Source: Mobula hypostoma (taxonomy: Eukaryota). From it: a DNA stretch of 64,000 nt. Position 1 is the stretch's first letter, and each line of letters opens with the position of its first letter. The position numbers and the translations under genes were made by a program. The notes beneath the pieces were generated by a model that ran no database searches, was not told where the DNA came from, and worked only from the letters and a program-made list of their open reading frames with translations. Of the stretch, positions 6,956 to 64,000 are shown in pieces. The DNA lies in NCBI RefSeq assembly GCF_963921235.1, contig NC_086097.1, forward strand, positions 61,816,001 through 61,880,000. The letters are read 5' to 3'.

Positions 6956-6959
6956 ATGA

Positions 6960-7443: not shown

Positions 7444-7852
7444 GTGCTTAATTTCTTAATGCCTGCAAAATTGGCTCCACAATACAGTAATATAATCATT
7501 TTGTCCCCAGTTTTAAACCAACAGGTTCTGTTTGTAATGATGGAAGTGCAAGATGATCCACAACATTAATCATTGAGTTCACAAAGAATTACAAGAACAA
7601 TTACCTATAAAAGCCCACATAATCAATACACCAAGGAAAAACAATTCACCATTTGTTTTCTTTGCACTGCAATTTCCTTTGATGTAATCAACTCTGAAGA
7701 GAACAGAGAGTTAGGAAAGTATTTCCACATCTATTCTTTCATGGGTTATTTAACATTCATTACTTCAAAAGCTTCATGCTGGGAGATTAAGGAAAGTTTA
7801 TGTGGCTTGAGGGCACTTCATTTTACATATATATCTATCGTTAGAAAGGATA

Positions 7853-8321
7853 CACTTAGTGGCCACTTTATTGGGTGCACCTGTACACCTGCTCGTTGTT
7901 ATTCAGACCAAATATCAGAATAAGGAAGAAATGAGATCTAAATCAAATCTTTAACCGTGGAATGATTGTTGGTGCCAGAAAGGGTGTTTTGAGTGTTGTC
8001 AAAAACTGCTGGTCTCCTGGAATTTTCAGATACAATAGTCTCTTTACAGAGAATGGCAAGAGAAACAAAAAGTATCCAGTGGGCAGCAGTTCTGTGGGGA
8101 AAACACCTTGTTAATGAAAGGGATCAGAGGAGGATGACCAGCCTGGTTCAAGGTGACAGTTACTCAGATAACGACACCTTACAACAGTGGAGTGCAGGAT
8201 AGCATCTTTGAAAGGATAAATCAAACCTTGAATGGATGGGCGACAGCAGCAGAAGACCACGCACATACACTCTGGCCACTTTATTAGGTGCAGGATATAC
8301 CTAATAAAGTGGCATGGAGTG
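7853..8321 (+). mobile_element. Non-autonomous Tc1-family DNA transposon
   Basis: Imperfect TIRs cacttagtggccactttattgggt / acctaataaagtggcatggagtg, TA on both sides, internal decayed Tc1 N-terminal HTH (GMIVGARR..SKTAGLLEFS). Confidence 0.8.
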
Positions 8322-8514
8322 TATATTAATTAATGTCACATGATATGATTTGCCCAGTGAGGGTGAACAGTTGATATGATTGAAGTTCTGATTGCCCTAA
8401 CTGCTGCATCTCTAGGATATGTGAAAACTTACATAAAAATGTGGGTAATTTTGGATGCACAAAGCTCACAGTAATTGGATAAGTAGTCATTTACAGAAAG
8501 AAGACATCTCAAAC

Positions 8515-30631: not shown

Positions 30632-33600
30632 CATAAGACCATAAGACCATAAGACAAAGGAGCAGAAGTAGGCCATTTGGCCCATCAAGTCTGCTCCGCC
30701 ATTTTATCATGAGCTGATCCATTTTATCCTATTTAGTCCCACTGCCCCGCCTTCTCACCATAACCTTTGATGCCCTGGCTACTCAGATACCTATCAATCT
30801 CTGCCTTAAAGACACCCAATGACTTGGCCTCCACTGCTGCCCGTGGCAACAAATTCCATAGATTCACCACCCTCTGACTAAAAAAATTTTTTCGCATTTC
30901 TGTTCTGAAAGGGCGCCCTTCAATCCTGAAGTCATGCCCTCTCATACTAGACTCCCCCATCATGGGAAACAACTTTGCCACATCCACTCTGTCCATGCCT
31001 TTTAAATTTCGAAATGTTTCAATGAGGTCTCCCCTCATTCTTCTAAACTCCAAGGAATACAGTCCAAGAGCGGACAAACGTTCCTCATATGTTAACCCTC
31101 TCATTCCCAGAATCATTCTAGTGAATCTTCTCTGTACCCTCTCCAACGTCAGCACATGCTCTCTTAAATAAGGAGACCAAAACTGCCCACAGTACTCCAA
31201 GTGAGGTCTCACCAGCGCCTTATAGAGCCTCAACATCACATCCCTGCTCCTATACTCTATTCCTCTAGAAATGAATGCCAACATTGCATTCGCCTTCTTC
31301 ACTACCGACTCAACCTGGAGGTTAACTTTAAGGGTATCCTGTACGAGGATTCCCAAGTCCCATTGCATCTCAGAACTTTGAATTCTCTCCCCATTTAAAT
31401 AATAGTCTGCCCGTTTTTTTTTCTGCCTAAGTGCATAACCATACACTTTCCAACATTGTACTTCATTTGCCACCTCTCTGCCCATTCTTCCAATCTATCC
31501 AAGTCTCTCTGCAGACTCTCCGTTTCCTCAGCACTGCCGGCCCCTCCACTTATCTTCGTATCGTCAGCAAACTTATCCACAAAGCCCTCTATTCCATAAT
31601 CCAAATCGTTGATGTACAATGTAAGAAGAAGCGGCCCCAACACTGATCCCTGTGGAACAACACTGGTAACCAGCAGCCAACCAGAATAGGATCCCTTTAT
31701 TCCCACTCTCTGTTTCCTGCCAATCAGCCAACGCTCTATCCACGTATGTAACTTTCCTGTAATTCCATGGGCTCTTATCTTGTTAAGCAGCCTCATGTGT
31801 GGCACCTTGTCAAAGGCCTTCTGAAAATCCAAATATACAACATCCACTGCATCTCCCTTGTCTAGCCTACTGGTAATTTCCTCAAAAAATTGTAATAGGT
31901 TTGTCAGGCAGGATTTTCCTTTAAGGAATCCATGCTGAGTTCTGCCTATCTTGTCATATGCCTCCAGGTACTCTGTAACCTCATCCTTGACAATCGACTC
32001 CAACAACTTCCCAACCACCGACGTCAAGTTAACAGGTCTATAATTTCCTTTTTGCTTCCTTGCCCCCTTCTTAAATAGTGGAGTGACATTTGCAATCTTC
32101 CAGTCCTCCGGAACCATGCCAGAATCTATCGACTTTTGAAAGATCATCGCTAATGCCTCCACAATCTCCACAGCTACTTCCTTCAGAACACGAGGGTGCA
32201 TTCCATCTGGTCCAGGAGATTTATCGCCCTTTAGCCTATTCAGCTTCCTGAGTACTTTCTCTGTCGTAATTGTGACTGCGCACGCTTCTCTTCCCTGCCA
32301 CCCTTGAGTGTCCGGTATCCTGCTGTCTTCCTCAGTGAAGACTGATGCAAAATAGTTGTTCAGTTCCTCTGCCATCTCCTCATCTCCCATTACAATTTCT
32401 CCAGTATCATTTTCTATCGGTCCTATATCTACTCTCACCTGTCTTTTACTCTTTATATACTTGAAAAAGCTTTTAGTATCCTCTTCAATATTATTTGCTA
32501 GTTTCCTTTCATAGTTAGTCTTTTCTCTCTTAATGATCTTCTTGGTTTCCTTTTGTAAGGTTTTAAAGACTTCCCAATCCTCTGTCTTCCCACTAATTTT
32601 TGCTTCCTTGTATGCCCTCTCCTTTGCTTTAACTTTGGCTTTGACTTCTCTTGTCAACCACTGTTGCATCCTTTTTCCACTCGAAAATTTCTTCTTTTTT
32701 GGAATATACCTGTCTTGCACATTCCTCATTTCTCGCATAAACTCCAGCCACTGCTGCTCTGCCGTCTTTCCCGCCAGTGTCTCTTTCCAGTCAACTTTGG
32801 CCAGTTCCTCTCTCATGCCACTTTAGTTTCCTTTACTCCACTGAAACACCGACACATCAGATTTCGGCTTCTTTTTTTCTAATTTCACAGTGAACTCAGT
32901 CATGTTATGATCACTGCCTCCTAAGGGTTCCTTCACCTCAATCTCTCCAATAACCTCCGGTTCATTACACAATACCCAATTCAGTACAGCCGATCCTCTA
33001 GTGGGCTCAACAACAAGCTGTTCTAAAAAGCCATCTCGCAGACATTCTACAAATTCCCTCTCTTGAGATCCAGTGCCGACCTGATTTTTCCAATCTACTC
33101 GCATGTTAAAATCCCCCACAATTATCATAACACTGCCCTTCTGACAAGCCTTTTCTATTTCCAGTTGTAATTTGTAGTCCACATCCCTGCAGCTGTTTGG
33201 AGGCCTATAAATAACTGCCATCAGGATCCTTTTACCCCTGCTATTCATTAGCTCAACCCATAAAGATTCTGGACCTTCCGATCCTATATCACCTCTTTCT
33301 AATGATTTAATATCATTTCTTACCAATAAAGCCACGCCTCCCCCTCTGCCTACCTTCCTATCCTTCCGATACACCGTGTATCCTTGGACATTCAGCTCCC
33401 AGAGACATGCATCCTTTAGCCAGGTCTCAGTGATGGCCACAATATCATACCTGCCAATCTGTAGCTGTACAACAAGATCATCCACCTTATTTCTTATGCT
33501 GCGTGCATTTAAGTACAACACCTTAAGACCAGTATTTGATACTTTTTGCTTTGATTTCACTGCAACTTTATTGCACTGCAGCTCATCCCAATGGCCACAC

Positions 33601-34623
33601 ATTTGCCCCATCACCTGCCTGTCTTTCCTGCCATCTTTACTGCTCACTATCTTAGATTTATTTCTGTTTTCCCCTTCCTCCGCTCTATCATTCCGGTTCC
33701 CATCCCCCTGCCAAATTAGTTTAAACCCTCCCTAACAGCTCTATTAAACTTTCCCGCCAGGATATTGGTCCCCTTCGGGTTCAGGTGTAACCTGTCCTTT
33801 TTGAACAGGTCATACTTCCCCCAGAAGAGATCCCAATTATCCAAGAATCTGAAGCCCTGCCCCCTACACCAGTCTCTCAGCCACGCATTCAGCTGCCTGA
33901 TCCGACTACTCTTGCCCTCACTAGCACGTGGCACAGGTAGCAATCACGAGATTACTACCCTGGAGGTCCTGCTTCTCAGCTTCCTTCCTAACTCCTGGAA
34001 ATCTCTCTTCGGGACCTCCTCCTTTGTCCTATCTATGTCATTGGTACCAACATGTACCAAGACAACTGGCTGCTCACCCTCCCCCTTTAGAATATTTAGT
34101 ACCCGATCCGAGACATCCCGTACCCTGGCACCTGGGAGGCAACACACCATGCGGGTATCTCTGTCAGGCTCACAGAATCTCCTGTCTGTTCCCCTGACTA
34201 TGGAATCCCCCACGACTACCGCATTTCTCTTCACCCTCCTTCTCTCCTGCACAACAGCGCCAAACTCAGTGCCAGAGACCCGGTCACCGTGGGCATCCCC
34301 CGTCAGGTCATCCCCCTCAACAGCATCCAGAACAAGATATTTGTTGCTGAGGGGGACAGCCACAGGGGTGCTCTCCACTATCCGAGCATTTCCCTTCCCT
34401 CTCTTGACAGTGACCCAGTGTTCTGACTCCTGTAGCCTAGGGATGACTACTGACTCCTGTAGCCTAGGGATGACTACCTCCCTGTAGCTCCTGTCTATCA
34501 CCTCTTCACTTTCTCTGATAAGCACTAGGTCATCAAGCTGCAGCTGCAGATCCCTAACACGGTCCCTGAGGAGCTACAACTCGGTGCACCTGGCGCAGAT
34601 GTGGCCATCAGGGAGGCTGGAAG
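30632..34623 (-). mobile_element. Near full-length CR1 LINE inserted in Rex1
   Basis: ORF1 esterase (VVVGDSIVRG, VHVGTND, LHLN), APE (LYLNARS, ITETW, GDFN, SDHN), RT (FADDTK); few disruptions; (ggtcttat)n tail; TSD ACTGTC at 30626-30631 and 34624-34629. Confidence 0.97.
34424..34477. repeat. Perfect 27-bp tandem duplication within CR1 ORF1
   Basis: tgactcctgtagcctagggatgactac x2, giving in-frame VVIPRLQES x2. Confidence 0.95.
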
Positions 34624-37780: not shown

Positions 37781-37908
37781 TTATAAAGTAATTTTGAAGA
37801 ACTGTAAAGTCTTTCTCCTACAGAGTGCTTATACGTGGCCTATCACCTTGGGCTGGAGGTTGATCCTTGGCAGGATTATCATTGTTCTCCAGCACAATAC
37901 GGTAAAAT

Positions 37909-39399
37909 TCTGGATTAGTTCCTGAGGATTGGAGGGTGGCTAATGTAACCCCGCTTTTTTACAAAAGGAGCGAGAGAGAAACCGGGGAATTATAGACCAG
38001 TTAGCCTGACATTGGTGGTGGGAAAAATGCTAGAGTCAATTATCAAAGACGTGATAACAGCACATTTGGAAAGCGGTGAAATCATCGGACAAAGTCAGCA
38101 TGGATTTGTGAAAGGAAAATCATATCTGACGAATCTTACAGAATTTTTGAGGATGTAACTAGTAGAGTGGATAGGGGAGAACCAGTGGATGTGGTATATT
38201 TGGATTTTCAAAAGGCTTTTGACAAGGTCCCACACAGAGATTAGTGTGCAAACTTAAAGCATACGGTATTGGGGGTATGGTATTGATGTGGATAGAGAAT
38301 TGGTTGGCAGACAGGAAGCAAAAAGTGGGAATAAACGGGACCTTTTAAGAATGGCAGGCAGTGACTAGTGGGGTACCGCAAGGCTCAGTGCTGGGACCCC
38401 AGTTGTTTACAATATATACTTATGACTTAGACGAGGGAATTAAATACAGCATCTCCAAGTTTGCGGATGACACGAAGCTGGGCGGCAGTGTTAGCTGTGA
38501 GGAGGATGCTAAGAGGATGCAGGGTGACTTGGATAGGTTAGGTGAGTGGGCAAATTCATGGCAGATGCAATTTAATGTGGATAAATGTGAAGTTATCCAC
38601 TTTGGTGGCAAAAATAGGAAAACAGATTATTATCTGAATGGTGGCCGATTAGGAAAAGGGGAGGTGCAACGAGACCTGGGTGTCATTATACACCAGTCAT
38701 TGAAAGTGGGCATGCAGGTACAGCAGGCGGTGAAAAAGGCGAACGGTATGCTGGCATTTATAGCGAGAGGATTCGAGTACAGGAGCAGGGAGGTACTACT
38801 GCAGTTGTACAAGGCCTTGGTGAGACCACACCTGGAGTATTGTGTGCAGTTCTGGTCCCCTAATCTGAGGAGGAAACACATCCTTGCCATAGATGGAGTA
38901 CAAAGAAGGTTCACCAGATTGATTTCTGGAATGGCAGGACTTTCATATGATGAAAGACTGGATCGACTAGGCTTATACTTGTTGGAATTCAGAAGATTGA
39001 GGGGGATCTTATTGAAACGTATAAAATTCTAAAGGGAATGGACAGGCTAGATGCAGAAAGATTGTTCCCGACATTGGGGAAGTCCAGAACGAGGGGTCAC
39101 AGTTTGAGGATAAAGGGGAAGCCTTTTAGGACCGAAATGAGGAAAAACTTCTTCACACAGAGAGTGGTGAATCTGTGGAATTCTCTGCCACAGGAAACAG
39201 TTGAGGCCAGTTCACTGGCTATATTTAAGAGGAAGTTAGATATGGCCCTTGTGGCTAAAGGGATCAGTGGGTATGGAGAGAAGACAGGTACAGGTTTCTG
39301 AGTTGGATGATCAGCCATGATCATACTGAATGACGGTGCAGGCTCGAGGGGCCAAAAGGCCTACTCTTGCACCTATTTTCTATGTTTCTATGTTTCTAT
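37909..39399 (+). mobile_element. Young 5'-truncated CR1 (same subfamily as 25011-26927)
   Basis: RT motifs, (atgtttct)n tail, TSD GTAAAAT at 37902-37908 and 39400-39406. Confidence 0.95.
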
Positions 39400-39740
39400 G
39401 TAAAATCCAGTAGTACCACATTTTATTTCTGCCAGAGGACCTATTCTACATAAATTCTTGATCTTCATTGTCATGGTAAGATTTTTATTGGAGTTTTCTT
39501 TCTGGTTCCCTGCCTTTCAAACAACTCACTTGTCGCACATATTTCGAAACGGAGGTGACTGTTAATAGGTGATTTCTGCTATTCTTTCCCAAAGGACCAA
39601 TTTTATTTCACCCCCTCCCCAATACTACACGACCATTACACTGGATCTCATCAAACAACTCTCCTCTAATTCCTGCCTACTTTAGGCTGGGCACACTCTC
39701 ACAGTTGTTCAACAACCATCTTCCATTTTCATTGAAACTT

Positions 39741-41692
39741 TAGAAATTACCTAGGGTTACCCATAGCCCTCTATTTTTCTGAGCTCCATGTGCCTATTTA
39801 GGAGTCTCTTAAAAGACCCTATCATATCCGCCTCCACCACCTTTGCCAGCAGTCCATTCCAGGCACTCACCACTCTCTGCATAAAAAACTTACCCCTGAC
39901 ATCTCCTCTGTACCTACTTTCAAGCACCTTAAAAATGGGCTCTCTCATGTAAACCATTTCAGCCCTGGGAAAAAGCCTCTGACTATCCACACTATCAATG
40001 CCTTTCATCATCTTATACATTTCTATCAGGTCACCTCTCATCCTCCGTCACTCAACCTATTCTCATAAAAAATGCTCCCCAATCTAGGCAACATCCCTGT
40101 AAGTCCCCTCTGCACACTTTCTATAGTTTCTACATCCTTCCTGTAGTGAGGTGATGAGAACTGAGCACAGTACTCCAAGTGGGGTCTGACCAGGGTCCTA
40201 TAAAGCTGCAACATTACCTCTCAGCTCTTAAACGCAGTCCCATGGTTGATGAAGGCCAATGCACCTTATGCCTTTTTAACTACAGAGTTAAGCTCTGCAG
40301 CAGCTTTGAGTGGACTCGGACTCCTTCTGACCCTTCACACTGCCAAGAGTCTTACCATTAATACAATATTCTGCCATCATATTTGACCTTCCAAAATGAA
40401 CCACCTCACACTTATCTGGGTTGAACTCCATCTGCCACTTCTCAGCCCAGTTTTGCATCCTATCGATGTCCCGCTGTAACCTCTGACAGCCCTCCACACT
40501 ATCCACAACACCTCCAACCTTTGTGTCATCAGCAAATTTACTAACCCATCCCTCCTCTTCCTCGTCCAGGCCATTTATAAAAATCACGGTCCCAGAACAG
40601 ATCCCTGAGAGACACCACTGGTCACCAACCTCCATGCAGAATATGACCCATCTACATCCCCTCTTTGCCTTCTGTGAGCAAGCCAATTCTGGATCCACAA
40701 AGCAAGATCTGCTTGGATCCCATGCCTCCTTACTTTCTCAATCAGCTTTGCATGGGGTACCTTATCAAATGCCTTGCTGAAATCCACATACACTACATTT
40801 ACTGCTCTACCTTCATCAATGTGTTTAGTCACATCCTGAAAAAATTCAAACAGGCTTGTAAGGCACGACTTGCCTTTGACAAAGCCATGCTGACTATTCC
40901 TAATCATATTATGACTCTCCAAATGTTCATAAATCCTGCCTCTCAGGATCTTTTCCATCAACTTACCAACCACTGAAGTAAGACTCACTGGTCTATAATT
41001 TCCTCAGCTATACCTCCTCCCTTGAACAACATCTGCAACCCTCCAATCCTCTGGAATCTCTTCTGTCCTCATTGATGATGCAAAGATCATTTCTAGAGGT
41101 TCAACAATCTCCTCCCTCGCCTCGCACAGTAGCCTGGGGTACATCTCATCCAGTCACAGAGACTTATCCAACTTGATGCCTTCCACAAGCTTCAACAAAT
41201 CCTCTTTCTTAATGTCTATATGCTCAAGCTTTTCAATCTGCTGTAAGTCATCCCTACAATTGCCAAGATCCTTTTCTGTGGTGAATACTGAAGGAAAGTA
41301 TTCATTAAATATCTCTGCTATCTCCCCTGGTTCAATATACACTCCTCCACTGTCATACTTGTTTGGTCCTATTCTCTCATATCTTATCCTCATGCTCTTC
41401 ACATACTTGTAGAATGCCTTGAGGTTTTCCTTAATGCTGTCTGTCAAGGCCTTCTCATGGTCCTTTCTGGCTCTCCTAATTTCATTCTTAAGTCCTTCCT
41501 GCTAGCTTTATAATCTTATGGGTCTCTATCTTTACCTAATTTTTCCAACCTTTCTTAAGTTTTCTTTTCTTCTTGACTAGATTTTCAACTGCCTTTGTAC
41601 ACCATGGTTCCTGTACCCTACCATCCTTTCCCTGTCGCATTAGAATGTGCCTATGCAGAATGCCACTCAAATATCTCCTGAACATTTGCCAA
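39741..41692 (-). mobile_element. Decayed CR1 ORF2 (subfamily of 1585-5242)
   Basis: Minus ORFs with DFSKAFDKV and FADDTKVGG; similar to 3150-5160. Confidence 0.92.
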
Positions 41693-44264: not shown

Positions 44265-44358
44265 AACACACACAAACTGCTGGAGGAACTTAGCAGGCCA
44301 GACAGCATATATCGAAAAAAGTACAGTCGACTCTATTTTTTTCCATAGATGCTGTCCA
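44265..44358. repeat. Fold-back remnant of a Penelope terminal repeat
   Basis: acacacaaactgctggaggaacttagcaggccagacagcat... followed by the inverted ..atagatgctgtc around gtcgac. Confidence 0.65.
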
Positions 44359-46124: not shown

Positions 46125-47175
46125 CAGCTGTGCTGTTTGATACCTGTGAATTCATGACATAAGAGTGGGATCCTAGGAAAAGTGCCCACACTTGTAACGG
46201 AGTAGCAGATATCACTGGAATTCACTTGCTGAGACTGAAGATGGACACAAGGGGCTGATGAACTGTCACTAGAGTAAAATTTTGTCCCTGGAGATAGTGG
46301 TGGAACTTCTTTACTCCCCATACTCAACTAAGGGCCTCTCAGTCGATCTATGTGTAGTTGTGTTCTGTGCTAGTCAGTGATCTTGAAGCAAACACAATCG
46401 GGTGTTCAGATCCATCTTTTGTAGTGTGTGCCAAAATGTCTCCAATGCCATAAGAGGATCCATCTTGCGCCACTCTAATGGGTTTAGATGGTCATATTGG
46501 GTGAGCAGTTCATCTGACATTATTAGTCTCTTTGTTTCCTTGATTGCTCTTTCACATCTTTCTGACCACTCCCAATTTGCTCCTGTCTGCAACAGTGCAT
46601 TCAATGGGGGCAGCACTGTAGTACTGTTTGGGAGAAACCAACAATAAAAGCTTACAAGGCCCAAGTATGACCTGAGTTGTGTCACATTTTCTGTTTTGGG
46701 TGCCTGCAGCACTGCTTCAGTTTTCTCCTGTGGCTTATGTAAGACATGCTTGCCAATGACACATCCACAATATGAAATCTCATTCTTGAAAAACTCACAT
46801 TTCTTTCTCTTTGCATGCAAACCATACTCACTCAGCCTGGCAAGCACTTTACCAAGATTCGGGAGGTACTCCTCATCATTATTGCCAGTCACTATGGTGT
46901 CATCAAGGTGACATTGTGTTCCTGGGGCATCGGAGCACTTGGTCCATTGGTCTTTATCAAATTTCTGGTGCAGAGGCAATGCCAAAGACACAAAAATGTC
47001 TTCTATTTTCAGCAGATGATACTGCACAGTACACAGCACAGGATTGATGCTCACTTTGAAGTCCCCCACATTTCCAAACAGCTCCAGCCTTCCCTTTTTT
47101 TGACCATCAGGACAATGGGCATGGCCCAATTGTTCCACTCATCCTTGGAGAGAATGCCAGATGCCTCCATGTTCT

Positions 47176-49178: not shown

Positions 49179-50271
49179 GCCTCCATGTTCTGAAGTTCAG
49201 AATCCACTTTAGGACATAGCGAATAAGGCTCTTGACACCTTTCATGGAATCTTGGAGTTACTGCCTCATCTGGTTCAATTCTGGTCTTCATGACTTTGAG
49301 TTTACCAATCCCCTTCTTAAACACCTTCTCATTAGCATTAATCAGCTATGATAATCTCTGGCTAGTGCTACCATTTGGGCTGCAGTTGCCTGTTAATGAC
49401 GCATTGGGAGCTTTGATTGAGTGTCAGTCTAGTTTTTCTCAACCATTCACATCCAGAAAGTGCTGCCCCTCCACTTTTCATCACATAAAGCTCTAACTGC
49501 TGTTCTTTGCCTCTGTACATTACATTCACTTTCAGTTTGCCTTTGGGAGAAACTTCTTCTCCTGTGTAGTTCTTTAGCACCACCGAGGTCTTTTCTAATG
49601 GTAGCTTGGAAAACATTCTGTCGTAGTCAGCCTCTGAAATTATAGACAAAGCGGACCCTGTAACCAGCTCCATTTTCAGTTTTATACCAGACACATCTAT
49701 TGTGATCCAGATGATTTTGCAATCTGCTTCAGTAATGCTATGCATTTCTAGGGATGACAGCTCATCTTTGTCAGATTCTGTTTTGTCTGATTCAGTTTCA
49801 CTTTCAGTCACTTTATGCACATGTTTACTTTTGTGTTTGAAACTTTCCACTGGGTGTGTTTTTTCTCTTTGGTTGTCTGACTTGCAGACTCTCTCTATGT
49901 GACCTTATCTGTGACACTTTCTGTAAACTTTTATTTTGGACCAACAGTCATTTGCATTATGGGAGGATTTTCCACATCAACAACATTTTTGGCTTTTTTG
50001 GACCATTCGGGGACAGTTTTTGTGTTTCACATTCTAAACTCTCTTTCTGTAATTCTGATGCATCCTTTGCTGCTATCTCTATTGATATTGCAATGGTAAA
50101 TGCCCATTCTAAGGTTAGGTCTCATTCTGACAGTAGCCTCTTTTGAGTGTTTGACCATGCATGCCACTTACAAGCCTGTCCCTTAATGCATCAGAAAGCC
50201 CATCTCCAAAGTCACAGTTTTGGGAAAGTTTGTGCAGTTCTGCAATTTATTTTTAAATGCTTTCATCCTTT

Positions 50272-51399: not shown

Positions 51400-51750
51400 A
51401 CCATCACCCAGGGCATGCCCTTTTCTCACTGTTACCATCAGGTAGGAGGTATAGAAGCCTGAAGGCACACACTCAGCAATTCAGGAACAGCTTCTTTCTC
51501 TCTACCATCCGATTCCTAAATGGACATTGAAGCTTTGGACACAACCTCGCTTTTTTTAATATACAGTATTTCTGTTTATGCACATTTAAAAAAATCTATT
51601 CAATATATGTAATTGATTTACTTGTTTATTTATTATCATGTTTTATTTTATTTATTTTTTTTCTCTCTCTGTGCTAGATTATGTATTGCATTGAACTGCT
51701 GCTACTAAGTTAACAAATTTCACATCACGTGCCACTGATTCTGATTCTGA
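51400..51750 (+). mobile_element. Rex1/Babar 3' end
   Basis: HPGHALFSLLPSGRRYRSL; (ttctga)n tail; close to 44860-45100. Confidence 0.85.
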
Positions 51751-51837
51751 ACAAAGACATAGAGGGTTTGCCAGATATGAATATAGCATGAACATAAGAC
51801 AGCACAATAGCTTTTCATGAATAAGTATCATAAATTC

Positions 51838-51990
51838 TAGAAACATTCTAGATCAGCCAGAGTTTGTGGAGAACAAAAAACATTTCAGGCCAGTGATTTT
51901 TTTTTTCAAAAGTAGTCACTGTCCTGAAACATTATTTCTGTTCCTCTCCAAAAATTCCTGGCTGGCATGTTGAATATTTCTGATATTTAC
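51838..51990. repeat. Old imperfect palindrome, probably Penelope terminal-repeat derived
   Basis: tttgtggagaac..tttcaggccagtga is inverted relative to tcactgtcctgaaa..gttcctctccaaaaa. Confidence 0.5.
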
Positions 51991-52769
51991 AAATCTCTAT
52001 TTGGCCTTTGAACTAAGTACCTTGAAAATGGCCATGCCAAATGCAAGGTTGAGTGGGAATATTGTACTCTTCATCCAAATATTGAAGAATCATAGAATAT
52101 CTACAACACAGACAAATGCTATTTCACCCATTGTGGTGATGACTGTCTATAAAGAATTTCCCTGCCTAACCCTGACTTTCCAGCACCAGATCTCCTGCCT
52201 TGCAGGTCACAGTTCTTCAACTACATATTGTGATGGATTTAACATATTTCTTTGAACTGATTGGAATGAATTTCAGAGACAGTATACATCAAAGTGATAT
52301 TGCCATACAGCATGATTAATACTTTCAACCATAGATGAATTTCAAAGCAATGCTTTTCCCTACAGCACAAAATATGTAGGTTGTTCCTTTAATTAAAAGC
52401 AATACAAGCAGCTAATTCCATTACACGTTTTTGAAATTACCATCAATGGGAATGTAGAATATATATAGATTCCTTTCACTGACTTTTATTTTTCAGAAAA
52501 ACTGACTTAAATAAATTGGAAACTGGGCAACATGATCAAGATCTTTCATTGTTACAATGGGAACACAAACGCTTCACAGATTTAATTATTTCTGTTTTAC
52601 TTGCTCTGCTAGGAGTAGTCCTCCATTTATGTAGCAATTTAATTATTTTTCAATATCTTCTTGTGATGATAATGTATCTTAGCTACTAAAAGAGGAAAAA
52701 TCTTTGAAAGGAATGAACTTAGTATTGAATTCACTTTCACTCTACTCTGAGGGCCTCAGGACCTACCTG

Positions 52770-53200
52770 TACTCTGGGCCTGTACTAGCTGGAGTTTAGA
52801 AGAATGAGGCTGAATCTCATGGAAACTATCAAATATTGAAATACCTAAATAGAGTGGATGTGGAGAGGATGTTTCCTACAGCAAGGGAGCCTAGGACCAG
52901 AGGCCACAGCTTCAGAATAGAAGGATGTCCTTTTACCACAGAGATGAGAAGGAATTTGTTCAGCCAGAAAGTAGTGAATCTGTGAAATTCATTGCCACGG
53001 ATGGCTGTGGAAGCCAAGCCATTGGGCATATTTAAAGTGGAATTTGATAGGTTATTGATTAGTTATGGAGTCAAACATTAAGGGAGAAGGCAGGAGAATA
53101 GGGTTGGGAGGGATAATAAATCAGTCATAATAGAATGGCAAAGCAGACTCAATGGACCAGAAGGCCTAGATCTGCTCCAATGTCATATGGTCTTATGGTC
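52770..53200 (+). mobile_element. CR1 3' fragment
   Basis: LEFRRMR..SRTRGHS-like C-terminus and an atggtctt tail. Confidence 0.9.
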
Positions 53201-54197
53201 TATCTGTGTGCTTTTCCTGTTAATTTCCTGAGCCAGAGGCACAGGGGACGTGAGTATTAAATGCTTAAATCTTAGATGGTGTTGAGGTTGTAACTCCTCC
53301 CCCCGCACCCCCATCCAGAGATCAAAATTGATTTGCACTCTTACATAAGAATAAAACCAAACTTACTTCAAACTTAATGAAAAAATCTATTTTCAGACCT
53401 TATTAACTGAATTGCCTGACCCCTGCCCATTCCTGCAAAGCAGAGATAACCATTATTTTCTCTGAACATATAAAGTGAAAACCTTGTTATTGAGCTATAG
53501 AAAATAGATTCCATCTGTCAGAGTCTAACAGCTGATAACATATCTCAGTTGGTATGTTTAAATCAAGTTGTACAGCACCATCTTAAACAGTTCCTGTGTA
53601 AGTGCTAATGTGATTTTCCCATTAACTGGACTGGATGCTTCAAAGAGGAGGTACTATTCAACTAGACTGCAGCAAATTATTATTGAATAAACAGAGCAAG
53701 ATTAGTCGACTGCGAGAGGCCAAAGGGAAAAGATTTGTGAGGTACTGGCAATTGAACATGTAAGACTATTTCAAAGTTGTTTGGAGGTCAAAAGAAGTCG
53801 ATACACCTTTGGGACAACCAATACAGGGTAAGGAATGTATCGAGGCATAGGGTTGGGAGGAGAGTGATGGAAGATCATCCAGAAGCCGGTTGAAATGACA
53901 ACTGGCAAAGTCCTGGGATGGGAACAGAGGAGATAGGTGTAGAGTGAGAGTAGATAAGTACAATAGATGGTAAGGACATGGAGGGCCACAGTGTTTGTTT
54001 CTATACTGTACAACCCTGACTACAAAAAAAGTGGAAAGGTGCAGAACAGCATAGGTGAATATAAAGTATCAACCATTTGAGAATGGACGAATCAACATGA
54101 ATAATAAATAAGATGACATCTCATCCAGGAAAGCATAAAATAAATAAATGAAACTTGACATTAGCAATGAAATATTACTTAAATTGGATGCATCCAA

Positions 54198-54545
54198 TCT
54201 TCACTGGGGAAGTTAATTAAAAAAAATTAAGCTTCACTGGGGAAAATTAATTAAAAGGCAAATCTTCACTGTAAGAAATAAAGATATGCACTTCGCTGGG
54301 GAAAATAAATTAAGGATAGAATTTTCCTTTTGGAAAATTAATTAATTATTTGGTCTTCACTGGGAGGGGGGATTAATTAAATATCAAAATGCCAAGGGAA
54401 AGATAATTAAGGATTTGAATATTTCTGCAGAAATTAATTAATTAGTAGGCCTTCACTGGAGATAATTATAGATTTAAGGATCACTGGGGAAAATTAGCTA
54501 GTTCTTCACAAGGGGAAATAAATAAAAGATCTTCACTGGGAAATG
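54198..54545. repeat. Degenerate AT-rich minisatellite (cttcactggg..aaattaatta)
   Basis: About ten imperfect ~30-35 bp units sharing CTTCACTGGG and TTAATTA. Confidence 0.7.
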
Positions 54546-55017
54546 AAGTCAAGACCTTCTAAGATGTAGTGTATATGGATCCAAAACTAAATTACTTTTT
54601 AGGAACAATGGATAAGTAGAAGATCAGAGGACATAGCAAATTAGTGACCTTATAAAGGTGTACAGAATGATAAATTAATTTGGTGGAATAAATGAAGAGG
54701 AAAAGAAATCTCCCAAATTCATGCCCATGTTTTCAAAATCCTAAATAGAACCCTTTTCTCAGACTTATGCCCCTGGTCCAGCAATGAAAATCACTTACAA
54801 AATGATTACTGACATTCTGTGTGATAGTGAAGATAAAATAGCACTTTCCATCTTTCTCAACCTCCCTGCACAGTGTCCTCTTCAAAAACTTCTTTGCTGT
54901 TAGGCACCACTCAAAACTATTTCTATTCCTTAGTTCTCACATCTGCATTGAGAACACATACTCAAAAAAATTAAATGATCTCTAGAATCTGTGGCCATAT
55001 GGGCTTTCCTTGGATGT

Positions 55018-55189
55018 AAACAACAGGAATTCTGCAGATGCTGGAAATTCAAGCAACACACATCAAAGTTGCTGGTGAACGCAGCAGGCCAAGCAGTCCT
55101 GACGAAGGGTCTCGGCCTGAAACGTCGACCACGCCTCTTCCTATAGATGCTGCTTGGCCTGCTGCGTTCACCAGCAACTTTGATGTGTG
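55018..55189. mobile_element. Palindromic Penelope-derived mini-element
   Basis: Perfect 42-bp inverted arms (55055-55096 and 55150-55191), 13-bp TSD TTTCCTTGGATGT (55005-55017 and 55190-55202), inserted in a V-SINE-like relic. Confidence 0.88.
55095..55130 (+). ncRNA. Minimal type I hammerhead ribozyme motif
   Basis: GTC-CTGACGA-AGG(GTCTCGG)CCT-GAAAC-GTC^GAC: CUGANGA and GAAA cores, stem II, GUC cleavage triplet, 3-bp stem I. Confidence 0.75.
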
Positions 55190-55744
55190 TTTCCTTGGAT
55201 GTGCCTGTTTCCACCCACATTACAAAGAACTGCTGCTTGACAAGTTAGTCATTGACTGTAAGTATCACCGAGAGTAAGCAGTTGACTAAAGAATTAGGTA
55301 ATAAATAGGAAGTTACAGGAAATGAATGGAAACGTGGGATTGATGGGATTTGTGATACAATTGCCTCTAACTGCTCAGGTTTAAACAACAAAATAAATCT
55401 TACTAAATGATTCAGCACAATGAAATACATTAAAAAGTAGTTTACAACAAGCGGGTTCATAGTAGAAAATAGCACAACTTAATGATCTGAATAGTCTTCT
55501 TCAATGTCACAAGAAAGAAAAAGAAGCAAATCTTGGATCCTCCAGCAATTTATTCCTGGCAACTTGTTTTCCCAAAGAGCATTTGGCCCATGTTCTTTGA
55601 TCCTGTGCAGATCAGCTGGCAAGAGTATTAACAGGCATTTTTTTTTCATTCCCTGCTTCTGTCTGTGGCTTCCACCTGCGTTCATTCATCATCCTGGTAC
55701 CTAAGAAAAGAAACATAACATGCTTTAACAGCTAATGCCCAATG

Positions 55745-57345
55745 GTTCTGATATCTACAATCATGAATTGCTTCAAGAGGCTCATTACAGCCCACTTTAA
55801 CTCCAGCCTTTCAGACAACATTGACCCTCTGCTGAGAAAGCTCTATGGTGGATGCACTCATTTATGGAGCACATGAACAGTAACCTTCAATACTATAAAT
55901 CCAAACAAACTCATTACCAAGCTCATAACCTTAGGAGTTAATACTTCCCTCTGCAAATGGATCTTTGACTTCTTGCCCAACAGACCGCAATTAGTAAAGA
56001 CAGGCAACAATGCCTGTGCCACAATTATTCTAAACACTGGTGCTCCACAAGATTGCATTCTCAGCTGCTCCCACTCTGCTCCCTCTAATCTCATGACTAT
56101 ACGGCTGGATGCTGCTCAAACTCTATCTACAAGTTTGCAGATCGTACCACTACAGTGGGCCATATCTCAAGCAATGATGAGTTGGAGTGCAGAAAGGAGA
56201 TAGAGAGCTTAGTAAGACGGTGTTATGACAACAGCCTTCCCTCAGCAAATCAAGGGAGCTGGTTATTGAGTTCAGTAAGGGGATAGTGAACATCTCCTGT
56301 CTACATGAACGGTACTTAGGTTGAGAAGATTGAGAGCTTCAAGCTTCTATGAGTGAACATCACCAATACCCTGTCCTGACCCTACCATGTAGATGCCATT
56401 GCCAAGTAAGCTCATCAAAGCCTCTACTTCCTCAGAAGCTAAAGGAATTTGGCATGTTTCTGTGAAACCTTACTAATTTTTATCAATGGACCAGAGAAAG
56501 CACCCTTATCTGTATGCATGATGGGTTGGTATGACAACTGCTCTGCATGTGACTGTAATAAACTATGGAGAGTCGTGAACACAGCTCAAGCACATCACAG
56601 AAACATGGAGTCACCTATGAACTCTTCTCCAGCCTCAGTAAAGTATCCAACAGAATCAAAGACCCTATCCACCCCAAACATTCTCTCGTCTCCTCTTTTC
56701 CATTCAGCAGAAGATGCAAAACCATGAAAGCATGCACCATCAGGCTCAAGGAGGGCTTCTAATGTGCTGTTATAAGACTATTAAGTGTTTTTTTGCTACA
56801 AGAAGATGAAATATTGGCCTCACAATCTTGCACGTCATTGCATTGCACTTTTCTGTAGCTATTACACTTCTATTCTGCAATGTTATTGTTTTACATTGTT
56901 CTAGCTCAATGCACTCTGTAATGACTTGATATGTAATGAAAAGTGTGCAAGACAAGTTTTTCACTGCACCTTGGTATCTGCGACAGCAAGATTACTCCAC
57001 AAGATGTGCTCCATGAAATTGTGTCCTCAACCCCCTGCTCTACTCCCTGTACGTTCATGACTGTGTGGCCAGATTCTTCTCTAATTCCTTCTACAAGTTT
57101 GCAGATGATACCTCTGTAGTTGCCGTACCTTAAATAATGATGAGCCGAAGTATTGGAAGGAGAATAAAAACTTAGTAGCATGGTCTCATGACAACCTTTC
57201 CCTTACTGTCAGAGAAACCAAAGAACAAGTCATTAACTTCAGGAAGGGAACAATGCAAATGCTCCTGCCTGCATCAACGGTGTCGAGGTAGAGATCTACA
57301 AGTTATTGGGAGTGCCCTTGTTCACACATGTGACATGTGACAATA
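55745..57345 (+). mobile_element. Decayed Rex1/Babar LINE plus a second RT fragment
   Basis: ILNTGAPQDCIL and KFAD motifs (56030-56150, again at 57000-57120); 3' UTR ~56800-56990. Confidence 0.8.
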
Positions 57346-58174
57346 ATAGCCTCATTCCATTTCTATTACCAGTTCCAATTTCAATTCCTTGTCTGTATTA
57401 AACTCTTTGAGGAAAATCATCACTTAGCTACTGATTATAACAGGTCCATTGCACCACCATTTTGTTGGTCTCTTTTCTGTTTCTAATTTGTTAAATTGTT
57501 GAATCAACAGGGAGCATTGGATGAGTAGAAATTTCCTCCAATAAATTTTGGGAAAACTGTAACATCTGTACTTGTGGTAAATTTTGTTTCCTACCAATTT
57601 ACTCCATTCTTCTCCTTGGTTTCTGCCTGAAACTGAATCAAACAGTTTGCAGACTTGTTTTTATTTTGATCCCCATTTCCACCTTGGTAAGGTTACCCAA
57701 GCCTACCCTGCTTCTGTTCAAGTACAATTAAAGCCCTTATTTACTACTAGTTACTTAATAATAATGTTGACTATTACAAACATTCTGCATGATCACCATT
57801 ATCTTACCGAAGGAAGAATCTTTTTAATCATTGCTAACAAAAAGAATAATTTCAATCCAAAGTGAAATACTGTGAATTGTAGAATCATGTAAATTATGTG
57901 AGAAGAACTTTAATAATAATTGAACCACATCAGGCTGATTGTTACCATCATCAGTTGAGCTAAGAAATAGAGACACTAAATTATCTGTCAACTGATAACA
58001 AAGGATAAATCATAAGTTGCTCAGGAGTGAACCATTCAAATTAGAGCAAACTTGAGACAAGCCATTTGTTAAACTTTGGCAATTGACATATAAAATGAAG
58101 AGGACAAACTGTTTTTTGACTAAGTCTCAACAACCTAGAATCTTCCTTCACAGAACTGAGAACATGGTCACAAT

Positions 58175-60586
58175 TGCTGTGTATTTAATATGTCTGTAAT
58201 ATTTTCAATATATTGTTTGATTAAGAATTCTTTTCTGTTTACATAATCCATTATGAATTATATGTAAAAGTAAGTGAATGTTCTGTGTCATTACGCCACT
58301 AAGCCATAAGTGCATGCCTCACTAAAAGTAAAAATCAGGTGCACGTTATTCCCAGCTCTTTGTTTTTTTTCAATTAGATTTTTGCTTTGGAGTTGCAAAA
58401 CTTAACTGTCACAATGAGTAAGAACTTAAACAAAACAGAGATGACTGCATACATATTTAACCACAGCATGTGTTATTCTTTGCAGGAGGAGAGAAATGGT
58501 TAAGTTTAAAAAAATGCACAAAACAGGTGAAATTCATGGGTTCATAAACAGTGAGTACAGGATAATAATAATAATGATAAATTTTCAAAAATCAGAATTG
58601 GCTAGTTATCAGAAAGATAGACACATTTGATTACACAAGAGATAACTGGATATTGTAAGCAAATGAAATAGGCAATGCAAAGCAATTGCCCGTTTTGCTG
58701 AGCATGTTGCATGGAAAAGCATTCAGTTTGCTTAGAAGTGTGACTGTTCCAACCAAACCAGCCGCAATGAGCTTTGCTGATATCGTGAAAGTAATGCAGG
58801 AATGTTTAGAACCAATAATATTGCTGATTGCAAAGTGCACTAATCAAAACAATTTCACTGCATGTGGTTGAACTGAAGTAAGTGTCTGAGCATTGTCTGA
58901 GAGATTGTTTAGTTTGTGGAATTTACAATAAAACATTCAAAAACAGCTCCTAATTGAGGAACAACTCACATATAAAAGAGAAGTGAAAATTGAGGAGACA
59001 CAATTATGTTGCAATCAGGAATGAAAGTTAGCATCAAAAATGTTTCAGCATCTAATAAGAAACCGACCTGGCTGAACAATTTCTTATACCATTGTGCCCG
59101 GGAGTAACATACCCCAAACCAATGCAGGTTTAAAGGAAAAAATTGCAGAAAATGCAACAAAGTCAAACACATACAAAGAGCATGTTGGGCAGATAGAAAC
59201 AAAGGGAATGCACAGGGAAGACAAAAAGCTAAAATGTAAAGTAGCAGGTTTAAAAAGCCAATTGAAAGTGAGTTAAGTAAGGTACTGGTTGATGCCACAG
59301 CAGTTTTCAAAAGGGCATTGGAAAACTCAAACATATCAAGGATAAAACAGCATTAAATGAAAATGCCACACCCAAGATTTACAAAGCCCGTCCAGTTCCT
59401 TATACCATCCATGATAAAGTAGCTGGTAACCTAGATTGCATGGAGGCTGAAGGAGTTTTTTTCCCAAAGTTGAGTGGAGCCCAGTATTCCCAGTAGCCAA
59501 GAAAAATGGATCTGTCAGGATCTTTGTTGATTTTAAGGTCACTATTAACCCAGTGGTGAAAGTGAAAATCTCTTCCCAGCATAGAGAATATCTTTGCAAG
59601 CCTTTCTGGAGGAAAACCCTTCAACAAAGTGGATTTATCTGAGGCGCACCTACAGATAGAAATCAAAGAGGAATTTGAAGTGTTTGCCACCATAAAAAAT
59701 TATAAAGTGATTTATCACTATAATAGGCTTATACTTGGAATAGCATCTGCACCTGCCGTCTGGCAGAAAACTATAGACTAGGTGCTGCAAGGTAGTACAG
59801 GCACTTAGTGTTACCGAGGTGATATCATTGTTACTGACAAGGATGACACGGAAAATCTCTAAAACCACAAAACGGTGTTAAAAAGATTAGACAAAAATGG
59901 GCTCGAAGCATAACCAACAAGTATGAATTCTTTAAACCAAGCATCATTTACTGTGGTCACACCATTGATGCACAAGGATTACACAAGTGCACGAAGTAAA
60001 TTCAAGCAGTGCTGAATGCTTTCATGTCAAAGGACATGTTACAGTTGTGACTCTTTTATTAAGTTGTCAGTTACTATAACAAGTTCCTGTCAAACCTGGC
60101 TAATGTCCCTCCACCCCTTGAACTCATTTCAATAGATTGAGAAGAATGGCAATGGACAAAGCAGTGTGAGGTGGAAATGGCGATGTCACACACTGTTCTC
60201 ACATTTAATGATCCGCATCATCCAGTAAAACTTACCTGTGATGCTTTGCCTAATGGTATAGGTGCAGTTATATCACATGTTATGAGTGATAGAAGTGAAC
60301 ACTCCATAGTTTTGCATCGCAGTCCCTTACAGGTGCAGAAAAAAATACGCACAGATTGACAGAGGACTTGAATCTGGTTTGCGTTGGAAAACATTTCAGC
60401 AGTATTTCTATGGGAGAGAGTTCACCCCCATTACTTATCATCAGAAGGATGTTCCACTAATAGTAGCAGCACAAATGCAGAGATGGACACTGTTTCTTGG
60501 AGGACGCAAATACAAGATCAAATTCAAGAGGACATATAATGATAGAAATGCTGATGGATTGCCTCATTTAACCTTATAAAAGGAAG
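58175..60586 (+). mobile_element. Decayed Gypsy (family of 19928-24464), truncated by Tigger
   Basis: LTR ~58175-58408, gag PVLLS..AFSLLRS..PTKP, RT, RNase H (PVKLTCDALPNGIGAV; NADGL). Confidence 0.88.
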
Positions 60587-60588
60587 TA

Positions 60589-63500
60589 CAGTGAAACCCC
60601 GTTATAATGTGATTGTTTGGGTCCATAAAATGTGAACACAAAAAAAGCAGGTCGTGCTAAATCAGGGTTGTTGTTACTGTAGAAATTAAAACACAAATTA
60701 ATTTTTTGTGAAGCTTTTTAATACACAAAACAAATAAAAACATTCAAGAATATTAGCAATCATCATTTACAGTTTATTTCTTTAAAAAGTGATCTAGTGT
60801 TCCTTGCTTAAATGTAGCATGTCACTGGCTGCGAGCGAAATCTAGAATGCTTCTGAGTTGGAGGTTTTTTTATGTGGTCGACCTCCTGGGTCTCCAGCCA
60901 ACGGAGGCTAGCCTCGAGGTGTTCAATGGCTTCAGACACTTTTGGGGGTGGGGGTGGAAACTCTTCATTATCATTTTCCTGTGGCTCGAGAACCGGTACA
61001 CTTGCGTCCAGCAGGTGCACAGATGTTGGGCATTCGTCGTTGGCAGCACTGGAGTAGCTCTTCTTTGTTCCATTGAGACAGCTTCTCTGTCTCATGCACA
61101 TCTTCCTCTATGAAGCCACACAAATCTGGCTCGTCATCATCATCTACCGTGGTGGATTGGCGTGATGAAACGGCTGGCCCCAGACTCTTCTCCCAGCATT
61201 TCTCTACACATGACAAGCTGACTGATGCCCAGGCCTTCCCACCTAAGTGGCAAACTTCCTTCACATTCAGGCTTTCCAGATAGGCTTCAAGTGTTGTTGA
61301 GTAGTCTACAATTCCATGAATTAATTCCCACCTGTAATTCTGCTTGAACACGGAGATGATCCCCTGATCTAGGGGCTGGATCTTGGATGTAGTGTTCTTG
61401 GGGAGGTAAGAAGCTCGGATATTTCCATCACGGCTTACTAGGTTGGCAGTTGGTGGATGAGTGGGACAGTTGTCAAGCAAAAGAAGAGCTTTGGGTTCTA
61501 GCTTTTGCTTATGCAAATAAGCGCAGAGGGCTGGGAAAAAAGTTTTGTGAAACTAATCCTCAAAGATGATACTTGTCATCCAAGCGCTGCTGCTGTGCGT
61601 GTACACAAACGGTAACAACTTCATGTTGACATGGTGGAAACAGCGGAGCGAGCAAGATTTGCCAATCATGAATGGTTTTAACTTAAGTGTTCCAACTTGT
61701 TTACACAAATCAACAATATCACGCGATATTTGCGTTGTTTGAACCCCTCACATCTGTGGGCATCATCTTTGACCACAAGACCACAAGACAAAGAAGCTGA
61801 AGTCGGCCATTCGGCCCATCGAGTCTGCTCCGCCATTTTATCAGGAGCTGATCCATTCTCTCATTTAGTCCCACTCCCCCGCCTTCTCACCATAACCTTC
61901 GATGCCCTGGCTACTCAGATACCTATCAATCTCAACCTTAAATACACCCAATGACTTGGCCTCCACTGCTGCCCGTGGCAACAAATTCCATAGATTCACC
62001 ACCTTCTGACTAAAAAAATTTCTTCGCATTTCTGTTCTGAAAGGGCGCCCTTCAATCCTTAAGTCATGCCCCCTCGTACTAGACTCCCCCATCATGGGAA
62101 ACAACTTTGCCACATCCACTCTGTCCATGCCTTTCAACATTCAAAATGTTTCTATGAGGTCTCCCCTCATTCTTCTAAACTCCAAGGAGTACAGTCCAAG
62201 AGTGGACAAATGTTCCTCATATGTTAACCCTCTCTTTCCTGGAATCATTCTAGTGAATCTTCTCTGTACCCTCTCCAATGTCAGCACATCCTTTCTTAAA
62301 TAGGGAGACCAAAGCTGCCCACAGTACTCCAAGTGAGGTCTCACCAGCACCTTATAGAGCCTCAACATCACTTCCCTGCTCCTATACTCTATTCCTCTAG
62401 AAATGAATGGCAACATTGCATTCGCCTTCTTCACTACCGACTCAACCTGGAGGTTAACTTTAAGGGAATCCTGTACGAGGACTCCCAAGTCCCGTTACAT
62501 CTCAGAACTTTGAATTCTTTCCCCATTTAAATAATAGTCTGCCCGTTTATTTTTTCTGCCAAAGTGCATAACCATACACTTTCCAACATTATACATCATT
62601 TGCCACTTCTCTGCCCATTCTTCCAATCTATCCAAGTCTTTCTTGCAGACTCTCCATTTCCTCAGCACTACCGGCCCCTCCACCTATCTTTGTATCGTCA
62701 GCAAACTTAGCCACAAAGCTGTCTATTCCATCATCTAAATCGTTGATGTACAATGTAAAAAGAAGCGGCCCCAACACAGACCCCTGTGGAACACCACTGG
62801 TAACCGGCAGCCAACCAGAATAGGATCCCTTTATTCCCACTCTGTTTCCTGCCAATCAGCCAACGCTCTATCCACGTATGTAACTTTCCCGTAATTCCAT
62901 GGGCTCTTATCTTGTTAAGTAGCCTCATGTGTGGCACCTTGTCAAAGGCCATCTGAAAATCAAAATACACAAAATCTACTGCATTTCCCTTGTCTAGCCT
63001 ACTGGTAATTTCCTCAAAAAATTGTAATAGGTTTGTCAGGCAGGATTTTCCTTTAAGGAATCCATGCTGAGTTCTGCCTATCTTGTCATATGCCTCCAGG
63101 TACTCTGTAACCTCATCCTTGACAATCGACTCCAACAACTTCCCAACCACCGATGTCAAGCTAACAGGTCCATAATTTCCTTTTTGCTTCCTTGACCCCT
63201 TCTTAAATAGCGGAGTGACATTTGCAATCTTCCAGTCCTCCGGAACCATGCCAGGATCTATCGACTTTTGAAAGATCATCGCTAATGCCTCCGCAATCTC
63301 CACAGCTACTTCCTCCAGAACACGAGGGTGCATTCCATCTGGTCCAGGAGATTTATCTACCTTTAGACTATTCAGCTTACAGAGTACTTTCTCTGTCGTA
63401 ATTGTGACTGCGCACACTTCTCTTCCCTGCCACCCTTGAGTGTCCGATATACTGCTGATGTCTTCCTCAGTGAAGACTGATGCAAAGTACTCTTTCAGTT

Positions 63501-64000
63501 CCTCTGTCATCTTCTTATCTCCAATTACAATTTCTCCAGCATCATTTTCTATCAGTCCTATATCTACTCTCACCTGTCTTTATATACTTGAAAAAGCTTT
63601 TAGTATCCTCTTTGATATTATTTGCTAGCTTCCTTTCATAGTTAAGCTTTTCCCTCTTAATGACCTTCTTGGTTTCCTTTTGTAAGGTTTTAAAAACTTC
63701 CCAATCCTCTGTCTTCCCAGTAATTTTTGCTTCCTTGTATGCCCAATCCTTTCCTTTAACTTTGGCTTTGACTTCTCTTGTCAACCACGGTTGCATCCTT
63801 TTTCCACTCGAAAATTTCTTCTTTTGTGGAATATACCTGTCTTGCACCTTCCTCATTTCTCGCATAAACTCCAGCTACTGCTGCTCTGCCGTCTTTCCCA
63901 CCAGCGTCCCTTTCCAGTCAACTTTGGCCAGTTCCTCTCTCACTTTGCTAGCCAGTTTACGGTCTGGGATCATCTTGTAGCAGAGGCCTGTTTGTCATAG
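60589..64000 (-). mobile_element. pogo/Tigger-family DNA transposon (runs off the window; interrupted by CR1)
   Basis: TA plus a TIR-like cagtgaaaccccgttataa at 60587; DDE_1 motifs LLLLDNCPTHP and LPKNTTSKIQPLDQGII; TGLCYKMIPDR at 63948-64000 continues into 61700-61771. Confidence 0.9.
61772..63942 (-). mobile_element. 5'-truncated CR1 (subfamily of 30632-34623)
   Basis: RT motifs, (ggtcttgt)n tail, TSD CTTTG at 61767-61771 and 63943-63947. Confidence 0.95.

Follow-up and report, generated by a model that had tools for sequence, protein, structure and literature searches.

A highly probable Penelope insertion scar with a minimal hammerhead motif in a ray genome

Introduction

Insertions of Penelope-like elements (PLEs) are often described as an inverted, 5'-truncated copy combined with a tail of 30–40 bp at one end (PMC8557442, PMC8969392), and cases with target-site duplications (TSDs) of 8–10 bp and a 31-bp tail are given in PMC3846280. 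For PAc, a PLE of the Poseidon clade from the lizard Anolis carolinensis, the element's protein is reported to nick and extend both strands, starting at two neighbouring internal positions which delimit the tail (Frangieh 2024, PMC11167929). According to the same report, no target homology is needed and insertion is equal with a dead hammerhead; the lizard ribozyme is described there as cutting only when the protein is present. As regards minimal metazoan hammerheads in general, PMC4209133 reports no cleavage by single motifs and little by dimers, and dimer cleavage is attributed to Lunse et al. as cited in PMC6765202. A CX2-5CxxC linker between RT and EN is given as the mark of the Neptune and Nematis clades (PMC8557442).

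The insert described here lies within a 64-kb window, i.e. the whole stretch of DNA that was analysed. The structural features of a PLE insertion unit are present at this locus, and they are those of the Pen2a_Av-type insertions as depicted in PMC3846280 and PMC8557442 (Fig. 2): a head-to-head inverted 5'-truncated copy, a TSD around the whole unit, a one-sided tail of 30–40 bp and a hammerhead in the pLTR. In contrast to the Pen2a_Av-type cases, both halves are shorter than 100 nt and contain no ORF; the TSD measures 13 bp, compared with 8–10 bp in the rotifer cases described, and the overlap at the turn is 2 nt, compared with 15 bp in Pen2a. The likeness to PAc, as described in PMC11167929, would consist of two RT start sites a tail apart, of nicking and extension of both strands, and of a weakly active hammerhead that is dispensable for insertion. 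PAc, however, belongs to the Poseidon clade and is described as having its hammerhead at the ORF start, whereas the relatives of the present element carry the CX2-5CxxC linker (Neptune/Nematis type) and the hammerhead of an old copy in the window follows a GIY-YIG-like end at a distance of ~290 nt.

The motif itself resembles the metazoan PLE hammerheads described by Cervera and De la Pena (2014, PMC4209133) in that it consists of the core only, with palindromic positions 15.2–16.2 and an extra base after position 9; those hammerheads, too, are reported mainly as single motifs on truncated copies, with some close pairs on opposite strands. It differs from them by a helix I of 3 bp, as opposed to 4–5 bp in the Schistosoma families, and by a G-U pair in place of G10.1–C11.1. 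Metazoan non-LTR retrozymes (PMC7229834; bioRxiv 10.64898/2026.07.22.740005) are likewise presented as non-coding, pLTR-derived and equipped with a type I hammerhead; they are, however, described as head-to-tail tandems with at least two hammerheads that yield circles, whereas the insert is a head-to-head unit with one hammerhead. The insert is an ordinary new instance of the known Penelope footprint of inverted copy plus tail, and it changes no view of PLE biology.

Structure and age of the insert

The insert proper extends from 55018 to 55189 and measures 172 bp, because the last 2 nt of the right arm also belong to the TSD. The duplication has its left copy at 55005–55017 and its right copy at 55190–55202 (both on the plus strand), and the repeat finder aligns the two at 13 of 13 positions; a 13-mer direct repeat by itself is not rare (39 such pairs in the window versus 0.36 per shuffle). 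Inside it, a left half on the minus strand (55018–55096) stands head to head with a right half on the plus strand (55095–55189). The outermost part of the left half is an inverted, one-sided PLE tail of 37 nt (55018–55054, minus), the family's native extension past the arm, which has no partner on the right side. It is followed by the left arm (55055–55096, minus), an inverted 5'-truncated pLTR end. The left arm is complementary at 42 of 42 positions to the right arm (55150–55191, plus), a forward, tail-less pLTR end, the final 2 nt of which are also TSD. As the left arm begins 37 nt inside the insert, the inverted repeat is non-terminal on this side.

The 53 nt between the arms hold most of a minimal type I hammerhead motif (55096–55129, plus), composed of a 3-bp helix I, the core, a helix II of 3–4 bp and a loopless palindromic helix III, and a native pLTR spacer that leads from the hammerhead to the arm (55130–55149, plus). 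The spacer appears in loose contig ends behind 55129 in 4 of 4 runs and in an older copy (44265–44331); its first two bases are unlike the family's commonest reading, and helix I stops there. The position of the inversion junction (55095–55096) can be read from the loose ends of contigs: family contigs match in the forward direction only from 55095 and have different native letters before it, and the inverted arm matches up to 55096; therefore, the halves overlap by 2 nt, a microhomology common to both. Exact inverted 20-mers within 500 nt occurred with a mean of 0 in 50 shuffles, and the fold of the 198-nt unit has a z-score of -13.1, with 0 of 200 shuffles as good.

The status of the site was addressed with contigs from 4 of 24 sequencing runs, which were aligned to 54900–55320 at 90% likeness; runs X1 and X18 represent organism A, run X6 organism B and run X9 organism C. 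In X6, which derives from a related species, one contig of 2,322 nt covers 54900–55004 and 55190–55320 at adjoining record positions (433–537 and 302–432). At this empty site (record 17) the 13-mer is present once, and the flanks differ at 2 of 236 bases. A contig of X9 also begins at 55190 (4 differences in 131), and contigs of X1 cross both outer junctions (54900–55040 and 55167–55320) with 0 differences; an empty allele in X1 was not seen among the contigs listed. The TSD is therefore real, as follows from the X6 empty site together with the X1 outer-junction contigs, and the absence of the 172-bp insert from the related species proves the insert itself. From the same empty site it follows that the insertion either postdates the split of two species which are ~1% apart at the locus or was still segregating when they separated. 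The locus can serve as a presence/absence marker for close ray species.

The first-pass annotation, made from the letters of the window, had described a 172-bp insertion with a 13-bp TSD and perfect 42-bp arms around a 53-nt spacer. This description holds throughout: the duplicated 13-mer is identical in both copies and single at the empty site of X6, where the insert is absent, and the arms pair without a mismatch. That the insertion is recent, as had also been proposed, agrees with the perfect arms and with the empty site in a close relative; the empty-site allele suggested as a check was found in one X6 contig with one TSD copy. The expectation of double-stranded RNA upon transcription is likewise borne out by the model, in which RNA from either strand would fold into a duplex of 42 bp.

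Several other classes of element were considered for the insert and rejected. A non-LTR retrozyme does not fit a single descriptor match in the window and no tandem array at the locus. A MITE would have its inverted repeats at both termini, which is not the case, the left arm lying 37 nt in. Against a tRNA-derived SINE, the window contains 0 tRNA genes and all 172 nt are pLTR sequence. For a microRNA precursor, Rfam returned 0 matches at gathering score, the best being a generic hairpin match with 34.6 versus 88 bits.

The source family

Each flank of the insert is represented by one main contig, versus thousands on the insert itself. The contigs aligned to 54900–55320, nearly all of them on the insert, number 63,815 in X1, 42,689 in X6, 9,310 in X9 and 3,936 in X18; summed contig depths were not taken as copy numbers. 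Family members end at two places. At the outer end, 55018, contigs depart into unlike flanks in 239 cases in X1 and 183 in X6; at the inner end, 55051/55052, they do so in 113 cases in X1 and 102 in X6. The flanks are unlike each other (agreement 0.37–0.57), and the two ends are 33–34 nt apart, which identifies 55018–55054 as the family's tail, a stretch for which the first-pass annotation had offered no explanation. The insert uses the outer end on its left and the mirrored inner end on its right, there 3–4 nt short of the mode. Judged by their letters, both halves of the insert represent one and the same 3' end (pLTR), that of an extremely abundant Penelope-like element.

This element is likely of Neptune type, a placement that runs via diverged copies: the homologues P0004 and P0005 carry the CX2-5CxxC linker, and the copies in the window are without that part. 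Matches to RVT_1 and/or GIY-YIG were obtained for the homologues P0003–P0005, 3 of 4 of these matches being below the Pfam cut-off. The insert's 3' end is linked to an ORF with RT and GIY-YIG only through an old copy that is 74% alike. A literature search returned no paper on this PLE family in rays, and the family may be catalogued in a repeat database such as Repbase or Dfam. The junction pattern had 0 matches in metagenome contigs, a collection not expected to include a vertebrate repeat, and the family's hammerhead pattern had 0 each in metagenome, viral and prokaryote contigs, where vertebrate repeats are not expected either. A comparison of the translated element with a protein collection, which sampled junctions in mis-predicted proteins, gave 2 candidates, of which 0 were scored.

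Three older PLE relatives reside in the 64-kb window. In the first (5550–6222, plus), a 3' end, a hammerhead relic (6103), the arm and the tail point in one direction, arm and tail being colinear at 6180–6210; it follows that the insert's left 79 nt represent an inverted 3' end. The second (6495–7471) is itself a head-to-head unit, in which a minus-strand 3' end meets an RT fragment of the plus strand near 6958. The minus-strand part comprises a weak GIY-YIG C-terminal match, a 3' UTR, a hammerhead relic and the arm; 6596–6511 is 74% identical to the forward half of the insert over 88 nt (E 3.9e-7), and the weak match upstream of it to the GIY-YIG C-terminus spans 15 aa (E 0.035). The RT fragment (6958–7471), which is without its 3' part, is 63–73% identical to PLE proteins of Mobula hypostoma and Hypanus sabinus; Pfam did not recognise it, but the comparison with homologues did. 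The species of these proteins make a fish of the stingray group the likely host. The hammerhead relics occupy the same place of the pLTR in the older copies as in the 172-bp insert. The third relative (44265–44353) is a small inverted copy of a related PLE end that turns at the centre of a 6-bp palindrome (44326–44331). This palindrome is the hammerhead cut site as well, with pairing across it at 24 of 30 bases; the turn is compatible both with joining at a palindrome and with a template that had been cleaved. TSDs of at least 7 nt were not found for two of the older copies and none of 8 nt for the other, 44265–44353 being among those without a TSD.

Joints in which an inverted piece is followed by a forward one, with the turn elsewhere than in the insert, were collected from the contigs. 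The best 15 of 201 use 12 left breakpoints (55037–55069) and 12 right breakpoints (55094–55155), and joints with letters between the pieces were found as well (best 12 of 174); all rest on 20–29 letters on their short side and derive from other repeat copies. The head-to-head build is common in the family, and its turn point is variable. Against the reading of a one-off truncation stands that 10 of the 15 joints listed occur in both X1 and X6, several with a summed depth above that of the flank contig; they represent either old insertions shared by the two or recurrence, and some junction forms may recur or be amplified. Equally, 10 of the 15 joints listed restart at 55094–55101, the outer edge of the ribozyme. 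Such clustering is unexpected for purely random truncation, and it is partly an artefact, because the query is without native sequence before 55095. No contig among those listed spans 55096/55097.

The proposal of the first-pass annotation that the insert is a tiny retroelement of its own is not supported, since every base belongs to the common 3' end of the Penelope-like family and the junctions elsewhere are heterogeneous; the alternative that it had named, a one-off inverted truncation of a PLE, fits better, given the many different junctions and the one-sided tail. Thousands of such junctions are available across the family and could serve to separate two-primer from self-priming models.

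Two further kinds of joint deserve mention. Contigs of X1 and X6 return from 55129 to 55093–55096 with 1–7 letters between, and these joints may reflect hammerheads arranged in tandem within the family (retrozyme-like units). A joint from 55040 to 55099, i.e. from tail to hammerhead, has a depth of 1125 and occurs in run X18 only; that this run is RNA is a guess, and the joint could be a transcribed locus of the same build.

The hammerhead motif

The core letters of the hammerhead are CUGACGA at 55099–55105 and GAAA at 55119–55122, with a palindromic ACGU at 55122–55125 and C17 at 55126. The conserved core with an NUH site, the palindromic positions 15.2–16.2 and the extra base after position 9 (A55106) are all present. 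A minimal-hammerhead descriptor has its sole match in the window at 55099 and gave one match in 200 dinucleotide shuffles of the window. The first-pass reading of a complete core with a GUC site, predicted to be cut after 55126, is thus matched letter by letter, as is that of a stem III reduced to the palindrome ACGT, and its assignment to the Penelope-type minimal type I hammerheads agrees with the position of the motif in a PLE pLTR end. Rfam, by comparison, had 0 matches at gathering score for the window, and 6 weak matches for 54900–55320 at E up to 10, none of them to a hammerhead model.

The motif is weak in its helices. Helix I is limited to 3 bp, and helix II opens with G-U in place of G10.1–C11.1; loose ends of family contigs read a longer helix I and a C that gives G-C at this place. 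The letters of this copy may be its own or those of a subfamily. Helix II is better by 1.3 kcal/mol when A55106 is left unpaired and G-U forms the first pair. In the folding model, which omits tertiary contacts and protein help, the hammerhead fold lies above the ensemble by 5.8–7.1 kcal/mol for the loop alone and by 8.4–9.7 kcal/mol with the arms. The notion of a hairpin that presents the ribozyme in its loop is accordingly not supported by the model: the arms are predicted to lower the likelihood of the fold, the penalty rising from 5.8 without them to 8.4 kcal/mol with them. The fold of the loop is no better than that of shuffles (z -0.28, 74 of 200).

A dimer with swapped arms is calculated at -198.2 versus -195.4 kcal/mol for two hairpins, and a double hammerhead nests in it without crossing, 27.7–28.3 kcal/mol above two hairpins with the linkers left unpaired. 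Self-cleavage, including cleavage as a dimer, is thus predicted to be unfavourable, and the hammerhead of this copy would be a pLTR passenger that is predicted to be misfolded. Each strand carries just one of the two features, ribozyme or tail, and what natively follows the tail is missing from both; for these reasons the copy is likely dead. The same separation of ribozyme and tail argues against re-mobilisation with ribozyme processing.

Models of origin

That the insert is a Penelope insertion scar, by whichever route it came about, can be considered highly probable. As to the route, a single recent insertion of two truncated head-to-head copies of the PLE 3' end, likely from priming on both strands, is the probable course of events, which could have proceeded in the following manner: The GIY-YIG endonuclease would nick both strands with a 13-nt stagger. 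On the bottom strand, priming would take place at the inner (tail-less) start site over a 2-nt match, and ~95 nt would be copied, the hammerhead included; on the top strand, the outer (tail) start site would be used and 79 nt copied. The two cDNAs would then join at the 2-nt microhomology, followed by repair, and the perfect arms would represent the stretch copied by both. A simple fold-back of the right-hand cDNA is excluded as the source of the tail, because this cDNA is without tail sequence. The two-primer route is known in vitro from a Poseidon-clade protein, up to but not including the joining of two cDNAs, and the tie of the young subfamily to an ORF rests on relatives that are 74% alike. 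If correct, the locus contributes one data point on PLE integration: a nick stagger of 13 nt, a primer match of 2 nt and a separate start site for each strand.

The arms and their turn could also result from self-priming, in which one tail-started cDNA passed the hammerhead, folded back at a microhomology and copied itself, before the endonuclease trimmed one tail. Palindromic inverted junctions are read in this way by Arkhipova (2013, PMC3846280), the tail is ascribed to endonuclease resolution of an intermediate by Craig (2021, PMC8557442), the arms are identical, the loop can pair imperfectly with itself beside the turn, and the older copy at 44265–44353 turns on a 6-bp palindrome. Yet just 2 nt match at the turn of the insert, where the loop folds no better than its shuffles (74/200; z -0.28), and the tail-less end lies 3–4 nt from the modal family end (>100 contigs per run), as an RT start site would; moreover, two start sites are reported as mapped in vitro for the lizard PLE (PMC11167929). 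Self-priming is therefore regarded as unlikely, if worth keeping in mind. Further proposals are two separate events at one site, arms that were created or made perfect by a later rearrangement or gene conversion, and a DNA element of MITE type; the family would be dense enough for nested insertions (three older relatives in 64 kb). All of this is hardly credible: both halves sit within a single TSD, and neither is present at the empty site, which largely refutes such readings; the left inverted repeat lies 37 nt inside, and the same build occurs at many loci. An assembly artefact, finally, might be suspected where none of the contigs listed spans the inner junction; 42-bp arms, however, break 31-mer contigs, X1 contigs cross both outer junctions with 0 differences, and the clean TSD is confirmed by the empty site, which leaves next to no room for this explanation.

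A different kind of alternative grants the insert a life of its own, as a non-coding hairpin mini-element that is transcribed, re-copied in trans by the Penelope enzyme and processed by an active dimeric hammerhead. Core and cut site are intact and the insertion is recent; some joints recur in two species at a depth above the single-copy level, pLTR sequences alone are described as mobilisable in trans (PMC3846280), and animal retrozymes are reported as pLTR-derived (bioRxiv 10.64898/2026.07.22.740005). The model would also allow an arm-swapped dimer into which the double hammerhead nests without crossing. This dimeric form is, however, predicted to lie 27.7–28.3 kcal/mol above two hairpins (linkers unpaired), and the junctions are heterogeneous, the hammerhead is single, without a tandem, and its helix I has 3 bp. 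In addition, PMC4209133 describes minimal hammerheads as uncleaved when single and little cleaved as dimers, ribozyme and tail are on opposite strands, and a tRNA-like head is absent; the mini-element is thus very unlikely. Were the junction multi-copy and its RNA self-cutting, it would be a new minimal ribozyme retroelement. The most speculative version, a long shot of lower probability still, is a protein-free mini-element that arose from a Penelope scar and amplifies itself; its arms, swapped between two transcripts, would clamp the loops antiparallel into a double hammerhead. This arm-clamped form has a nested geometry, and the arm-swapped dimer equals two hairpins in stability, but the model predicts other pairings for the loops; if true, arm clamping would let an RNA with a single ribozyme cut as a dimer without a tandem array.

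Surroundings of the locus

Run X18, the RNA nature of which is a guess, has no cover on either flank and is uninformative on transcription. To place the locus relative to host genes, 116 stop-to-stop frames were compared with Pfam, out of 123 with at least 33 aa in 51700–59300 (the other 7 lie in 52759–53228), and 1 weak match was obtained. It concerns a 37-aa frame on the minus strand (52539–52649) that resembles the Med26/TFIIS bundle (E 0.0044, below cut-off) and is a possible host exon. Protein-like acidic stretches in different frames of the minus strand (55420–55760) lie behind a possible splice acceptor; they have no Pfam match and are possibly a decayed exon or due to chance. A degenerate A/T-rich array with 7 copies of ~31 nt in irregular spacing occupies 54196–54546. 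Three other short exact inverted repeats of at least 13 nt, at 1490–1570, 8250–8330 and 56430–56610, are outside the family by BLAST. Long ORFs of the window are located at 2741–5034, 25012–26829, 30733–33731, 37907–41501 and 61771–63942, at 46374–47138 and 49368–49904, and at 60971–61552; presumably, they represent CR1-type LINE RT/endonuclease (605 aa in the frame at 25012), Gypsy-type fragments and a piece of a pogo/Tigger-type transposase.
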